Assembly (NCBI GenBank): GCA_046289925.1
Contig: JBKBUN010000001.1
Location: forward strand, 10,199 to 74,198
Direction of reading: 5' to 3'
From: Burkholderiaceae bacterium
Lineage (GTDB): Bacteria > Pseudomonadota > Gammaproteobacteria > Burkholderiales > Burkholderiaceae_C
DNA: 64,000 nt
Numbering within the stretch: the first letter of the stretch is position 1; the number at the start of each line of letters is the position of its first letter. Of this stretch, positions 17,441 through 49,297 are shown in pieces. The notes below the pieces were generated by a model. The model was given only the letters and a program-made list of their open reading frames with translations. It had not been told where the DNA came from and ran no database searches. The translations under genes and the position numbers were made by a program.

Positions 17441-18544
17441 TCAGCGGCGCAGCCAGCCCGGCACCTTGAAGCGCACGATGGCCAGATAGGCCGTCACGTA
17501 GCTCACCACAAACAGCGCACAGAACGCCATGAGCACCAGGGTGTTGTTCCAGAACAGCACGGCCGGCACCACCGTCAGCAGCGTAAAGCCCCACAGGTAG
17601 GGCGAAGTGCGGTTGTTGCGCATCAGCAGGCGGCGCGACTCGTCGTCGTGGAACACACCGCGCACGATGCGGCGGTAGATCAGCTGGTGAAAATGCAGCG
17701 CATCGGCCACCCCGGGCGAAATCCCCCGCACCGCCTTGCGGTAGATGGAGAACACCGTCTCCCACACCGGGTAGATCAGCAGCAGCATCGGGAACCAGGG
17801 CGAAACCTCGCCGTTGCGCTGCACCAGCGACAAGCTGGCCAGCGCAATCACCACGCCCCAGACATACGCCCCGCCATCGCCTGCAAACAGCATGCCGCGC
17901 GGGTAGTTCCACACCAGAAACCCCGCCGTGGCCGCAGCGGTGGTCACCAGCAGGGCCGCCAGCCCCCGATCGCCCACCTGCAAGGCCACATGGGCCAGCG
18001 CCAGGCACACGATCAGCGCCACCATGCCCGCCAGCCCGTTGTAGCCGTCGATGATGTTGAAGGCGTGCGGCATGCCGGTCACAGCCAACAGCACCACCCC
18101 CCAGCCCAGCCAGGGGGCGGTGGCCAGCAGAGCATCCAACCATTCGATGCCAAAACGCGGCAACTGCAAGCCCAGCAGCCACAGCGCCAGCACCGCCGAC
18201 GCGCCGGTAAGCGCGAGCCGGTAGCGCACCGACAAGCGCTGCGTCATGTCCTCGGCAATGCCCCCCAGCGCCGCCGGCAGCAAGGCCAGCATCCACAGCC
18301 CCACCCAGGGCCCCAGCCGCAAAGAGCCTGGGTCGCCACCGTATGCCGACTGCAGCCCCCCGAGCAGCCAACTCACCCCCAAAGCCAGCAACAGAGCCGC
18401 CCCCCCCAGGCGCGGCACATCGCCGTGGTGAAAGCGCTGCGGCATGCCGTGCCCATACGCAGCCGCATGGTCGCGCGCCCAGCGGACGATGAAGGCAGCC
18501 GCCAGGGTGGCGACCAGAAAGGCGACGAACGAAATCCAGATCAT
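17441..18544 (-). CDS. MraY/WecA-like polyprenyl-phosphate sugar-1-phosphate transferase
   Basis: Multi-[26 protein letters not shown]. Confidence 0.9.
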
Positions 18545-19329
18545 CGGGCGTCGATCCTAGAGGCAGGCCGACCCGGCTGCGTGAGCAACTGTTGCGCACG
18601 CACAAATGCCGGGGAGCGCCACAGCCGCCACAGACTCTGCAAATGCCAGACCAGATGGCGCAGATTGCGCGAACTGGCCCGCCGCCCGGTGTGCACCACC
18701 TGTACCGCCGAACGGCGCAGCTCCAGCCCGCGCAAACGCAGACGGGCACACAGGTCCACATCCTCGCAATACATGAAGTAACGCTCGTCGAAGCCGCCGA
18801 CCGCCTCCCACACCGGCCGGGCCAGCACCAGACATGCCGCGTTCACCCAGTCCACCCGCTGGGTTTCGGCCTGGCGCTGCACGCGGCGTTTCCATAAGGC
18901 CGAAGGCGTTGGCCAATGGCGCTCGCTGGCCTGCACGCGACCCTGAGCATCGGTCTGCAGCGGGTAGGCGCACCCCACCGCAGGTTGCAGCGCATCCCGG
19001 CACAACGTGGCAAACGGCGCATCCCCCAGCCACTCCACATCGGGGTTGAGCACACAGACGCAATCTTCCTGGGCCCCTCGCAACGCTTTGTTGTGATTGA
19101 CACCGAATCCCAACGCTTGGGGGTTGCGCACCACCTGGAGCACAAACGGCCAGCCCCCCTCGGGAGCCTTGGGTTCGCTCTCGGGCAGATTCTGCGTCAG
19201 CACCACACGGCGCACCACATGCGCAGACGGCTGCGCCAGCGCCCCAAGCAGGCGCTGAACGTCGCGCCCGTGCCCATGGCTGACCACGGACACCACAAGC
19301 GACGGAGGATCCGTGGCGACTCGCAACAT
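18541..19329 (-). CDS. GT2 glycosyltransferase (WbbL-like rhamnosyltransferase)
   Basis: VSVVSHGHG, GFGVNHN, LNPD, GFDERYFMYCEDVDLC. Confidence 0.88.
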   Translation of the reverse strand: MLRVATDPPSLVVSVVSHGHGRDVQRLLGALAQPSAHVVRRVVLTQNLPESEPKAPEGGWPFVLQVVRNPQALGFGVNHNKALRGAQEDCVCVLNPDVEWLGDAPFATLCRDALQPAVGCAYPLQTDAQGRVQASERHWPTPSALWKRRVQRQAETQRVDWVNAACLVLARPVWEAVGGFDERYFMYCEDVDLCARLRLRGLELRRSAVQVVHTGRRASSRNLRHLVWHLQSLWRLWRSPAFVRAQQLLTQPGRPASRIDAR

Positions 19330-19390
19330 AGCCGGCTATTGTCACCCACTCCCCGATAAGCGCCCAGAGGCGCGCCGTCATAATCCGCGG

Positions 19391-46441: not shown

Positions 46442-47325
46442 CAATAGACCTTTTCTTTGAGCAAGCGCTGCAGGTACTGGCCGTAGCCGTTCTTGGCCAG
46501 GGGGGCGGCTAGCTTCTCAAGCTGCGCGGCGTCGATCCAGCCGTTGCGCCAGGCGATTTCTTCGGGGCAGGCGATCTTCAGGCCCTGGCGGTGTTCCAGC
46601 GTGGCGATGAATTGTCCGGCCTCCAGCAGGCTTTCGTGCGTGCCTGTGTCGAGCCACGCGTAGCCCCGGCCCATGATCTCCACGCTCAGTTGCCCCTGCT
46701 CCAGGTACAGGCGGTTCAGGTCGGTGATTTCCAGTTCGCCCCGGGCAGACGGTTTGAGGCGTTGGGCCAGTTCCACCACTTGGGCGTCGTAGAAGTACAG
46801 ACCCGTCACCGCGTAACTGGAGCGTGGCTGCGCAGGCTTTTCTTCGATGCTGAGCACCCGGCCGGTTGCGTCGAACTCCGCCACGCCGTAGCGCTCGGGA
46901 TCGTTCACGTGGTAGGCAAACACGCTGGCACCCTGCGTGCGGGACATGGCGTGGCCCAGCAGCTCATGGAAATCATGGCCGTAGAAAATGTTGTCGCCCA
47001 GCACGAGGGCGCTGGGGCTGCCCGCCAGGAAGGCCTCGCCGATCAGGAACGCCTGGGCCAAACCGTCTGGGCTGGGCTGCACGGCGTACTGCAGGTTCAA
47101 CCCCCATTGGTGACCGTTGCCCAATAGCTGTTCAAAGCGCGGGGTGTCTTGCGGGGTGCTGATGAGAAGGATGTCCCGGATGCCTGCCAGCATCAGTGTG
47201 CTCAGCGGGTAGTACACCATGGGCTTGTCGTACACCGGCAGCAGTTGTTTGCTGATGGCCAGCGTGGCCGGGTGTAAACGGGTGCCGGAACCTCCGGCGA
47301 GGATGATGCCTTTGCGTGCGTTCAT
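46441..47325 (-). CDS. rfbA: Glucose-1-phosphate thymidylyltransferase
   Basis: [23 protein letters not shown]. Confidence 0.97.
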
Positions 47326-48227
47326 AGCGTCTCTTGCAGCATGCGGGCCACGCCTTGCTGCCAGTGAGGCAAGCGCAGGCCGAACGTGGACTGAAGCTTG
47401 TCGGCGGCCAGGCGCGAATTGTGCGGTCGTACGGCGGGCGTGGGGAAGGCGCTGGTGGGCACAGGGGCCACTTCGGATACCTTCCAGGGCAGGTCTGGCC
47501 GCAGGGCGCGCGCCTGGTCGATGACGAAGCGCGCGTAGCGGTTCCAGGTGGTCTCGCCCTGCGCCACCAGGTGATAGAGGCCTCCGTCCTGCGGGCTGCG
47601 CAGCAAGTGGCGCACGGCATGTGCCGTGACATCGGCCAGCAGTTCAGCCCCCGTGGGAGCGCCCCACTGGTCGTCGATGACGGTCAGGCGCTCGCGCTCC
47701 TGGGCCAGGCGCAGCATGGTCTTGGCAAAGTTGCCGCCGCGGGCGGCGTACACCCAGCTGGTGCGCAGAATCAGGTGCTGGCAACCAGACGCCTGGATCG
47801 CACGCTCTCCCTCCAGCTTGGTGCGACCGTACACCGACAGCGGGGCCGGTGTGTCCCCCTCCCGCCACGGACGTTCGCCACTGCCGTCAAACACATAGTC
47901 GGTGCTGTAGTGCACCAGCCAGGCACCGATGCGTGCGGCGGCTTCCGCCAGCACTGCGGGAGCGGTGGCGTTGATCGTGCGGGCCAGATCGGGTTCGCTC
48001 TCGGCCTTGTCCACCGCGGTGTGGGCGGCGGCGTTGACGATGAGCTGCGGAGCCAGCGCCCGAACCGTTGCGGCCAGCTCGTCGGGACGCGTGAAATCAC
48101 CGCAGAAGTCGGTGCTGTCATGGTCCAGGGCCGTGACCTCTCCCAGTGGCGCGAGGCTTCGCTGAAGCTCCCAGCCCACCTGCCCGCCCTTGCCGAGCAG
48201 CAGGATGCGCAGCGGCGCGCCGCTCAT
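47322..48227 (-). CDS. rfbD: dTDP-4-dehydrorhamnose reductase
   Basis: [20 protein letters not shown]. Confidence 0.96.
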
Positions 48228-49297
48228 GCTGCCGCCCCAGCCTCTGCGTATTGGGTTTGCACCCACTGACGATAGGCCCCGGTCTGCACCTGGGCCACCC
48301 AGTCGGCGTTGTCCAGATACCAGCGCACCGTTTTGCGGATGCCGGTCTCGAAAGTCTCTGCTGGCTTCCAGCCCAGTTCGCGCTCGATCTTGCGGGCGTC
48401 AATCGCATACCGGCGGTCGTGTCCCGGCCGATCTTTCACATAGGTGATCTGGGTGCGGTAGCTCTGCCCGTCGCTGCGGGGTCGCAGTTCATCAAGCAGC
48501 GTACAGATGGTGTGGACGATCTCGATATTGGGCTTTTCGTTCCAGCCGCCCACGTTGTAGGTCTCGCCCGGCTGCCCGGCCTCCAGCACGCGGCGGATGG
48601 CGCTGCAGTGGTCGCGCACATAGAGCCAGTCGCGGATCTGCTGACCGTCGCCATACACCGGCAGCGACTTGCCCGCGAGGGCGTTCACGATCATCAGCGG
48701 AATCAGCTTCTCGGGAAAGTGATAGGGCCCATAGTTGTTGCTGCAGTGGGTGGTGAGTACCGGCAGGCCGAAGGTGTGGTGCCAGGCACGCACCAGATGG
48801 TCCGACGCCGCCTTGCTGGCGCTGTAGGGGCTGTTGGGCTCGTAGCGGTGCTGCTCTGTAAACGCGGGCGCTGCGGCCTCGAGCGAGCCATACACCTCGT
48901 CCGTGGAGACATGCAGCAAGCGGAAGGCTGCGCGCGCCGCGTCGTCCAGCCCCGCCCAATGGCCGCGCACCGATTCCAGCAGACGGAACGTGCCTACCAC
49001 GTTGGTCTGGATGAAGTCTTCCGGACCGTGGATGGATCGGTCCACATGCGACTCGGCCGCAAAGTTGATGACCGCACGGGGCCGGTGCTGCGCGAGCAAC
49101 TGCCCCACCAGCGCGGTATCGCCGATATCGCCTTGCACAAAGATGTGCCGTGCATCGCTCTGCAGGCTGGCAAGGTTATGCAGGTTGCCAGCGTAGGTGA
49201 GCTTGTCGAGATTGACGACCGGCTCGTCATAGTGCGCGAGCCAGTCCAGCACGAAGTTGGCGCCGATGAAGCCGGCGCCGCCAGTGACCAAAATCAT
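48224..49297 (-). CDS. rfbB: dTDP-glucose 4,6-dehydratase
   Basis: [30 protein letters not shown]. Confidence 0.97.

Follow-up and report, generated by a model that had tools for sequence, protein, structure and literature searches.

The window, a stretch of 64,000 nucleotides, carried a locus of 27 genes with all of its modules between positions 17441 and 49297 (Table 1). Twenty-four of the 27 genes were on the minus strand, and those on the plus strand encoded the MT-GT2-GT4 fusion, the TPR-methyltransferase, and the GH42-like protein. The first-pass annotation had called the genes mostly co-oriented, which held for the 24 but not for these three; every module on its gene list was present, including four SAM-methyltransferase domains, but the GH42-like gene had been left out. 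This gene shifted its position around the locus among relatives, and no solved relative of its product was found (best E 0.84). The GT2 gene next to wecA presumably encodes a WbbL-type adaptor rhamnosyltransferase, a subtype assigned from motifs. None of the 27 genes encoded an O-antigen ligase, an oligosaccharyltransferase, or a prepilin peptidase. Elsewhere in the same genome, a second rml set was located on contig C112 and a paralog of the TPR-methyltransferase (50%) on contig C244. No sigma-70 promoter was found in positions 28500-33000. Each of 21 RNA runs held at most 11% of the words, and contigs of relatives covered npdA in 4 of the 21; these runs had been found with that very stretch, making a ranking of genes impossible.

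Table 1. Genes and features of the npdA locus, in window coordinates.
Feature	Positions	Strand	Basis or remark
WecA-like initiating transferase, beside argB	17441..18544	-	PF00953; 97% to same-genus G078
GT2	18541..19329	-	PF13641; same position as Aeromonas wbbL
MT-GT2-GT4 fusion, 1252 aa	19391..23149	+	SAM methyltransferase, ~170-aa unassigned domain, coiled coil, GT2, GT4
TPR-methyltransferase, sporadic	23146..24474	+	in 5/58 related loci
SAM methyltransferase, variable accessory	24545..25405	-	in 35/58 related loci
SAM methyltransferase directly after wzt	25459..26313	-	in 32/58 related loci
Wzt with C-terminal carbohydrate-binding domain	26477..27775	-	PF00005, PF14524 (37.5 bits, cut-off 30.4)
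Wzm permease	27775..28578	-	PF01061
Exported PpiC/PrsA-type PPIase	29160..30122	-	PF13616; after npdA in 59/62 loci
Terminator-like hairpin 3' of npdA	30149..30176	-	12 pairs, T run
npdA, NpdA-family S-layer protein, 569 aa	30210..31919	-	59% to P. citrulli NpdA
Lipoprotein, predicted NTF2-like fold	32127..32549	-	structure match Z 11.7, rmsd 2.6, 98 aligned
GspD secretin	32812..35301	-	TIGR02517 above cut-off
GspC-like protein	35348..36079	-	weak NF041616 match; position conserved
gspM, L, K, J, I, H	36076..40412	-	
gspG, F, E	40416..43851	-	PF08334, PF00482, PF00437
GH42-like protein, 631 aa, hydrophobic N-terminus	43976..45871	+	PF02449 E 3e-4, at cut-off
rmlC, A, D, B (dTDP-L-rhamnose)	45896..49297	-	

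The exported, Ala/Thr-rich protein of 569 aa had been proposed as an S-layer protein, and its sequence places it in the already described NpdA S-layer family. Its alignment with NpdA of Paracidovorax citrulli AAC00-1 (P0287 = A1TUQ1_PARC0) ran over the full length with 342 of 576 positions identical (59%, E 0), which supports the proposal. The mature mass computed for A1TUQ1_PARC0 was 52,393.6, the published value for P. citrulli NpdA being 52,394 Da, and the 569-aa protein was placed in the Atlas cluster 'surface layer protein NpdA' (0.98). N-terminal alignment with the signal peptide of the ortholog gave a 25-aa signal peptide, leaving a mature part of 56.1 kDa with 16.7% Ala and 12.9% Thr. 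Four cysteines were conserved, and two beta-rich domains were predicted in the structure model (pLDDT 93.8). The protein matched no Pfam or NCBIfam family, that of Slr4 in Pfam included, and no PDB entry by sequence; with the whole protein as query, Foldseek gave no match at E 0.001 and the best VIA match was 1nc7 (Z 5.6, rmsd 2.5, 106 aligned). Deletion and cryo-EM have proven that P. citrulli NpdA is an S-layer protein, and its gsp neighbourhood has been described (PMC10765051). Lattice and nanopods have been shown only for NpdA orthologs (PMC10765051), and reported effects of the layer concern biofilm, nanopods, and Bdellovibrio resistance. For this bacterial group, earlier work had already described the NpdA family together with its lattice and gsp neighbourhood (PMC3110197, PMC10765051).

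The gsp cluster upstream of npdA comprised 11 gsp genes and the lipoprotein gene, in agreement with the earlier claim of a T2SS in one locus with the surface protein. Another GspD above cut-off (C98/C151) and another gspG (C65) indicated a T2SS apart from the npdA locus in the same genome. We surveyed 200 genomes of the family, 21 npdA-positive and 179 other, and 19 of the 21 carried at least two gspG genes. It is likely that the adjacent second T2SS exports NpdA, that the PPIase is the periplasmic foldase for NpdA, and that the lipoprotein helps NpdA assembly or attachment. Two of the 21 npdA-positive genomes (G047 and G196) kept npdA and the glycan genes but lacked gsp genes in the interval from rmlC to the lipoprotein gene; given these two, the dedicated T2SS of the first-pass annotation is best called putative, as is a requirement for it in NpdA export. 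The lipoprotein gene adjoined npdA in 63 of 65 related loci. We rejected the lipoprotein as a pilotin, given its NTF2-like fold, the absence of pilotins among the structure matches listed, and its staying by npdA where gspD was missing (G047, G196, and L171), although it stayed by gspD in G146.

The glycan genes pointed to an ABC-exported polymer. In a 1278-aa frame, the fusion protein had its methyltransferase at 56-204, GT2 at 556-729, and GT4 at 840-1176. Its coiled coil measured 91 aa between flanking motifs, with a heptad run of ~85 aa in a simple scan, and ranged from 87 to 182 aa among orthologs. By analogy, the fusion is predicted to be a terminator, ruler, and polymerase in one. The Wzt C-terminal domain was the single one found in this genome. 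The earlier suggestion of an ABC-exported, capped glycan is supported, the cap itself being predicted. The polymer may contain rhamnose without being a pure rhamnan, given that one module is a GT4 and that the LPS of Delftia acidovorans has 49% Rha and 38% Glc. An LpxL-like acyltransferase of weak similarity (23% over 155 aa) occupied the place after wzt in 9 of 32 loci examined, and PF03279 occupied it in a sister cassette. All three Wzy_C genes of the genome were on contigs away from the locus, a WaaL-like gene was on C19, and one of two PglL-like genes adjoined a pilin gene.

The linkage of glycan genes to npdA was far beyond chance. wzm and wzt followed npdA in 60 of the 62 related loci with enough DNA, and the linkage of the three modules in related genomes was supported. 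This Wzt clade occurred in 18 of 21 npdA-positive versus 0 of 179 other genomes, and close orthologs of the fusion in 19 of 21 versus 0 of 179; a different wzm/wzt clade stood beside npdA in G074. In four other families, wzt was beside distant NpdA homologs (6 of 15 loci). We rejected wecA and rml as system-specific, with a wecA-like gene in 133 of 200 genomes and the second rml set in this one. Compared with the same-genus genome G078, positions 18545-45923 had flanks of 93% DNA identity and an interior of 65-73% patches only. On this sequence pattern, members of the genus have exchanged 18545-45923 as a single block, with the WecA-like gene in the flank. Mapped on a wecA+argB tree of 33 genomes, the NpdA label showed 8 changes, of which at least 5 were forced. 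In npdA-negative relatives, the rml-wecA site held many kinds of glycan clusters, including rml/wzm/wzt. A 310-aa protein of this slot, suspected by eye to be an NpdA homolog, was not supported as one; HHalign gave a probability of 16% (with an alignment of 7 rows only), and the best hmmsearch scores, 1-3 bits, were under the shuffled controls. Among 12 genomes, no fine-scale co-divergence was detected between NpdA and Wzt (partial r -0.08) or NpdA and the polymerase (0.08), and the test of NpdA with gspE, one among eight, gave a partial r of 0.36 (uncorrected p 0.024).

A published mutant may connect rhamnose synthesis with the layer. P. citrulli has one rmlA, located in the npdA locus, and in washed cells of its rmlA Tn5 mutant the NpdA level was 4.37-fold lower (p 2.5e-7; supplement of PMC12133956); we identified ATG96729 in that proteome table as NpdA. 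The decrease had the lowest p in the table and was not remarked on in the text of the paper (PMC12133956). ATG96731 and ATG96732, likely from the locus by accession order only, were 2.2-2.5-fold lower, and a regulatory effect in the mutant is possible since they fell too. Biofilm increased in both the rmlA mutant and the npdA deletion. The LPS gel pattern of the rmlA mutant was similar to WT (PMC12133956), which counts against an O-antigen reading because a bulk loss of O-antigen should alter the pattern.

We give an even chance to the following reading: a rhamnose-containing, lipid-linked polymer of set length and predicted methyl cap, made by the same locus, tethers the NpdA layer to the outer membrane. 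NpdA, with its signal peptide, would be exported by Sec, folded by the PPIase, and passed through Gsp to assemble the lattice shown for its orthologs. WecA would prime undecaprenyl-P and the GT2 would add the adaptor; by comparison with WbbB, K. pneumoniae O7 ORF6, and WsaE, the GT2 and GT4 of the fusion would then polymerise, its coiled coil would measure, and its N-terminal methyltransferase would cap the chain. The C-terminal domain of Wzt would admit capped chains only, an unlinked WaaL would ligate them to lipid A-core, and NpdA would bind the chain as in Aeromonas. Additional methyltransferases or acyltransferases may vary the polymer. In favour of this reading are the membership of the protein in the NpdA family, the lower NpdA and higher biofilm of the rmlA mutant, the rhamnose-rich LPS of D. 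acidovorans, the O-antigen made by Aeromonas loci of the same order, the Wzt and polymerase clades that track npdA, the repeated changes of the NpdA label on the tree, the rml/wzm/wzt clusters at this site in npdA-negative relatives, the lack of a ligase or oligosaccharyltransferase in the locus, and the WaaL-like gene on C19. The unchanged LPS gel, the naming of NpdA as 'glycosylated', the two PglL-like genes, and the lack of fine-scale co-divergence weigh against this reading, as do G047 and G196, without an adjacent T2SS, and G074, with its other wzm/wzt clade.

In the main rival, which we regard as doubtful, an unlinked O-oligosaccharyltransferase of the PglL type would attach the polymer to NpdA by a covalent bond. 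NpdA would then be an S-layer glycoprotein with long chains, as in Geobacillus, and NpdA lacking the glycan would be unstable or poorly retained. The fusion resembles WsaE, NpdA falls in the rmlA mutant while the LPS gel is unchanged, and the two PglL-like genes could supply the transferase, but one of them adjoins a pilin gene, and no oligosaccharyltransferase was found in the locus or in the unlabelled neighbour families scanned. One paper terms NpdA 'glycosylated' with a 'laddering pattern', and native NpdA migrates exclusively above 150 kDa versus ~61 kDa for the E. coli product; however, the papers interpret the ladder as oligomers, the main text of the 2011 NpdA paper has 0 matches for 'glycosyl' or 'glycoprotein', and Aeromonas loci of this layout make O-antigen. 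In a broader version, which we think rather improbable, NpdA would be a Gram-negative S-layer glycoprotein carrying a long, ruler-measured, methyl-capped rhamnose polymer from the linked O-antigen-like ABC pathway, attached by the unlinked PglL ahead of export through the T2SS. Glycoforms would then account for the high-mass ladder, and at the rml-wecA site layer and glycan would be exchanged together as a single cassette, alternating with the undescribed 310-aa candidate S-layer protein with its own T2SS and glycan genes.

Mere co-location seems unlikely to us: the glycan genes would encode ordinary O-antigen in an envelope hot spot, with the S-layer genes as passengers, and NpdA would be retained through outer-membrane proteins, rough LPS, or the lipoprotein. 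The variety of glycan clusters at the rml-wecA site of npdA-negative genomes and the missing co-divergence agree with it, and hitch-hiking follows from block exchange, but this Wzt and polymerase clade never occurred in the 179 genomes without npdA, wzt also stands beside distant NpdA homologs in the other families, and NpdA falls when rmlA is lost. We attach still less weight to a polymer with its own lipid anchor, a capsule-like glycolipid rather than LPS, that would tether the layer whether or not the lipoprotein takes part. The LpxL-like and PF03279 proteins after wzt elsewhere, the unchanged LPS gel, and the constancy of the lipoprotein beside npdA would fit such an anchor, whereas here the place after wzt holds a methyltransferase, the acyltransferase similarity is weak, and no KpsD/KpsE-type export gene is among the 27. 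The locus supplies candidate genes for the attachment of NpdA layers to cells. If the ruler reading is true, the coiled coil's length sets a strain-specific chain length and hence the gap between membrane and layer. The core system of NpdA and gsp was already published, a public rmlA-mutant proteome shows less cell-bound NpdA, and the exchange site yields a second candidate S-layer family, that of the 310-aa protein.

Several known systems share parts of this arrangement. Pseudoalteromonas Slr4 (PMC7821379) and Shewanella vesiculosa P49 (PMC6971210) are likewise single abundant surface proteins downstream of a second T2SS, and the P49 cluster also has wecA and wza; in contrast, the 569-aa protein has no Slr4 Pfam match, and the gsp set here is complete. 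The Geobacillus stearothermophilus slg cluster (WsaE/WsaB) has rml, Wzm/Wzt, an MT-GT-GT fusion, and an adjoining S-layer gene (PMC2943079), but its host is not Gram-negative and export by T2SS is likely here. The comparison drawn earlier with slg thus holds for the fusion, rml, and Wzm/Wzt but fails on the WsaB-like oligosaccharyltransferase (Wzy_C), absent here. K. pneumoniae O12 WbbB and O7 ORF6 and E. coli O8/O9a WbdD have in common with this pathway an N-terminal terminator, a coiled-coil ruler, C-terminal glycosyltransferases, and a Wzt carbohydrate-binding module (PMC11231755), whereas GT2 and GT4 are combined here, no kinase domain was detected here, and those systems have no S-layer link. 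The phage-receptor wzt of A. oryzae lies in a strain-specific wbz cluster, apparently a different locus (PMC11597636). The wbO11/sps/vapA region of A. hydrophila AH-1 holds, in this order, rmlBDAC, spsE-D, the S-layer gene, wzm, wzt, a large polymerase, an acyltransferase, and wbbL, the wbsalmo cluster of A. salmonicida also matches the order found here, and deletion of rmlB, wzt, or wbbB in A. hydrophila AH-1 or A. salmonicida removes the LPS O-antigen (PMC4413209, PMC4483657). In Aeromonas and here alike, rml and wzt enclose the T2SS and the S-layer gene, with the polymerase and wbbL coming afterwards, and the Aeromonas analogy proposed earlier is close, gene for gene, in layout; the Aeromonas product is O-antigen, with the layer tethered to LPS. 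The polymerase here, however, begins with a methyltransferase instead of the Kdo transferase of WbbB, and the lipoprotein, PPIase, and wecA genes are inside the present locus. We found no paper linking npdA to glycan genes, and the main text of the 2023 NpdA paper (PMC10765051) mentions no glycosyl, polysaccharide, LPS, rhamnose, or O-antigen, although its Fig. S5 may include these genes; relative to what we found in print, this link may be new. The closest relatives are the NpdA systems of P. citrulli AAC00-1 and D. acidovorans Cs1-4, with the 59% identical protein (AAC00-1), the 25-aa signal peptide, and upstream gsp (PMC3110197, PMC10765051). P. citrulli DSM 17060 differs by lacking the TPR-methyltransferase and by an acyltransferase-like gene after wzt. 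From rmlB to wecA-argB its locus follows the gene order seen here, with counterparts of 25 of the 27 genes, and the first-pass view that this group has no characterised equivalent gives way to the published P. citrulli NpdA locus.

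The locus comprised 27 genes, with a WecA-like gene (17441) at one end and rmlB (start 49297) at the other, as determined by six-frame ORFs, a codon-based gene caller and Pfam/NCBIfam scans. It is real and coherent. All modules listed in the first-pass annotation were found, including four SAM-methyltransferase (MT) domains; the co-orientation noted there held for 24 of the 27 genes (minus strand) but not for the MT-GT2-GT4 glycosyltransferase (GT) fusion, a TPR-MT gene and a GH42-like gene, all on the plus strand. No ligase, oligosaccharyltransferase (OTase) or prepilin peptidase was found among the 27 genes. 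The source genome (88% complete) carried a second type II secretion system (T2SS), a second rml set and, on contigs other than that of the locus, one WaaL-like and two PglL-like genes; at this completeness, Wzt_C occurred only in the locus copy. The position of the GH42-like gene around the locus shifted among relatives, and a paralog in the same genome adjoined a GT2 and a small EamA-like protein. A sugar-modification cluster with GT41 and methyltransferases, adjoining motAB and che genes, likely serves flagellin glycosylation.

Coordinates of features in the window and in other fetched loci (L handles); G handles are genomes of the 200-genome family sample
Feature	Position	Strand	Remark
MT-GT2-GT4 fusion	window 19391-23149	+	1252 aa
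npdA	window 30210-31919	-	569 aa
GH42-like gene	window 43976-45871	+	absent from the first-pass list
tRNA-Arg(CCG)	window 58447-58522	-	
GH42-like paralog	L121:11760-13616		
Sugar-modification cluster	L123:982-8861		
DUF7657/DUF7654 proteins and AT3 acyltransferases	L046:16799-19306; L018:5393-7855		sporadic between wzt and polymerase
396-aa exported protein (G143)	L131:11162-12349	-	weak NpdA match (E 4e-10), near divergent T2SS
310-aa protein	L138:13888-14820; L136:5923-6849	-; +	examples from L133-L140
rmlC, lipoprotein, npdA run (G047, G196)	L153:14599-18521; L154:1-4945		

The 569-aa protein belonged to no Pfam/NCBIfam family. It had 2,560 relatives among 7,998 scored candidates, and a search of representatives clustered at 50% identity gave 3,677 at E 0.001; the nearest Atlas cluster was named 'surface layer protein NpdA' (0.98). 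Identity was 66% to a Delftia acidovorans ortholog and 59%, along the whole length, to a P. citrulli AAC00-1 protein (P0287; A1TUQ1_PARC0, ABM34689.1, ATG96729.1) whose mature mass of 52,393.6 Da agrees with the published 52,394 Da of NpdA in that strain. By homology, the surface protein of the window is NpdA. The NpdA layer was demonstrated via deletion, MS and cryo-EM, with similar layers in 15 of 16 additional cultures and 12 gsp genes reported upstream of npdA (PMC10765051); the S-layer family and its gsp linkage are thus already published. Gene order from rmlB to wecA-argB in P. citrulli DSM 17060 matched that of the window, lacking only the TPR-MT and the post-wzt MT, the latter replaced by an acyltransferase-like gene. 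The claim that this group has no characterised equivalent therefore fails. An AlphaFold model (pLDDT 93.8, pTM 0.94, 97 alignment rows) predicted a mostly beta fold of two regions; four cysteines were invariant, and no clear relative was found among solved structures. A hairpin and T run directly followed npdA, and the codon choice of the gene stands apart (GCT for 38% of Ala, GGT for 45% of Gly and CGT for 40% of Arg, with CGG absent), which is suggestive of high expression. Between them, PMC12827227, PMC11597636 and PMC11721376 link NpdA to Bdellovibrio resistance and describe, in A. oryzae RS-2, an ABC-type O-antigen cluster that is strain-specific and apparently separate from this locus.

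New here are the clade-level co-occurrence of Wzt and polymerase with npdA, with controls; the borders of an exchanged block; a drop of NpdA in an rmlA mutant, unremarked in its source paper; two natural npdA genomes without an adjacent T2SS; and a candidate 310-aa layer protein. No literature tying npdA to glycan genes was found in a search that left outside most subscription journals and Fig. S5 of the 2023 paper.

Linkage was measured in 72 loci from a species-genome scan, found via short NpdA words and so biased toward close relatives; counts used only loci with enough DNA. The three modules were linked in relatives, as first proposed: gspD lay upstream of npdA in 62/65 loci, wzm and wzt were present in 60/62, and the fusion lay within 10 kb in 48/58. 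The lipoprotein (63/65) and the candidate PpiC-type foldase (PPIase; 59/62) were similarly frequent. Across 200 genomes sampled evenly from the family, whose related members are non-independent data points, npdA matches occurred in 21 (weak in G143) and wecA was general (133). Wzt was 59-82% identical to that of the window in 18 genomes, every one npdA-positive, and at most 45% in the remainder. The GT half of the fusion had matches with E no higher than 1e-243 in 18 npdA-positive genomes, and in a 19th it was matched as two separate segments; among the 179 npdA-negative genomes, 3 had 41-44% homologs. Both were missed in G098, whose contig stops after the PPIase gene, and in G143, and Wzt also in G074, where a wzt of another clade adjoins npdA. 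A 33-genome tree of wecA+argB, with npdA-negative members picked non-randomly for closest wecA, required 8 changes of the NpdA label, at least 5 of them forced. Against the same-genus genome G078, DNA identity was 93% up to 18544 and from 45924. Because flank proteins were 96-99% identical while interior proteins were only 43-75%, the comparison indicates that secretion system, layer and glycan genes were exchanged together. In a sample of the class, npdA matched in 13/400 genomes; 15 loci fetched from these (two <6 kb) held the lipoprotein in 8, gspD in 6 and wzt in 6, with wzt at 36-40% identity and in four families. After removing host distance in 12 genomes, NpdA distances did not track those of Wzt or polymerase, which counts against tight co-adaptation.

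At least two gspG were present in 19 of the 21 npdA-positive genomes, and the npdA-linked type in 18, which fits a dedicated T2SS. However, G047 and G196, each with one GspD over the cut-off and six npdA matches, lacked gsp genes in the interval from rmlC to the lipoprotein gene, so the locus T2SS is not indispensable everywhere. The lipoprotein, predicted to adopt an NTF2-like fold, mostly tracked npdA rather than gspD. An AAC00-1 gspG1/gspG2 double mutant exists, and the available text of PMC9147443 yielded no NpdA test on it.

At the same wecA-argB site, 18 fetched npdA-negative genomes carried other envelope cassettes. Eight had a T2SS of another kind along with an exported protein of 310 aa, three had genes for type I secretion, and the remaining seven had further content, chiefly clusters of rml and wzm/wzt. 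The 310-aa cassette occurred in 8/200 family genomes, none npdA-positive, with a GspD ~50% identical to that of the window and a related lipoprotein. Its protein was Ala/Thr/Gly-rich, belonged to no known family, and had unnamed Atlas neighbours; comparison with NpdA did not support homology. In the annotated G084 and G020 the cassette included a PPIase, GT2, WsaF-like GT and other-clade wzm/wzt, with a lipid A acyltransferase-like gene in G084. The 310-aa protein is a candidate undescribed S-layer protein, mutually exclusive with NpdA. Type I secretion genes lay at the site in G163, G103, G195 and G143 (L141-L144, L152, L131); RTX-repeat proteins of 754 and 817 aa stood beside wzm/wzt in G163 and G103.

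We put at about even the chance that the chain sits on lipid A-core, as an LPS anchor of the layer. In A. hydrophila AH-1, with the order rmlBDAC-spsE..D-vapA-wzm-wzt-wbbB-acyltransferase-wbbL, deleting rmlB, wzt, wbbB or wbbL abolished O-antigen (PMC4413209), and A. salmonicida has a similar cluster and a layer tethered via LPS (PMC4483657). The Geobacillus cluster has an OTase whereas the window locus does not, which we counted for lipid A-core. P. citrulli has a single rmlA, within the npdA locus. Its rmlA Tn5 mutant, in washed cells only, gave 4.37-fold fewer spectra, with the lowest p in the table, for a 'Cell surface protein' (ATG96729; PMC12133956 Supplementary Table 3) identical to AAC00-1 NpdA; the phrase had no match in the available main text. 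The mutant formed more biofilm, reversed by plasmid rmlA (PMC12133956), and npdA deletion likewise raises biofilm (PMC10765051). An opposite-strand gene between rmlC and gspE in the type strain makes polarity on gsp less likely. Against an LPS anchor, the mutant's LPS gel pattern resembled wild type, flagellin dropped more (6.3-fold), and an ABC ATPase and an MT, likely from the npdA locus by accession order, were also 2.2-2.5-fold down (PMC12133956).

Covalent linkage of the glycan to NpdA is rather unlikely: PMC3958437 terms NpdA glycosylated and remarks on a ladder, and native NpdA migrates at >150 kDa (PMC3110197), but the latter paper interprets this as oligomers, and 'glycosyl' had no match in its available text. 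Mere co-location of glycan and S-layer genes is unlikely, and a lipid anchor of the polymer's own slightly more so.

The fusion, the predicted polymerase, comprised an MT, an unassigned region of ~170 residues, a stretch rich in heptads, GT2 and GT4. Coil spacing between two conserved motifs was 91 aa in the window and 87-182 aa in relatives (37/63 rows with both motifs found, two genomes counted twice). Stand-alone MTs varied among related loci. 'Rhamnan', as first proposed, is too strong a term: the GT4 may use another donor, and D. acidovorans Cs1-4 LPS holds 38% glucose beside 49% rhamnose (PMC4572682). Geobacillus WsaE (PMC2943079) shares the fusion's layout. So do O12 WbbB and O7 ORF6 of K. 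pneumoniae, in which a coiled coil determines how long the chain grows and its cap is recognised by a Wzt module (PMC11231755); by analogy, the polymer likely bears a methyl cap. Slr4 (PMC7821379) and P49 (PMC6971210) are likewise single surface proteins adjoining a second T2SS, and the whole layout is already published for Aeromonas.
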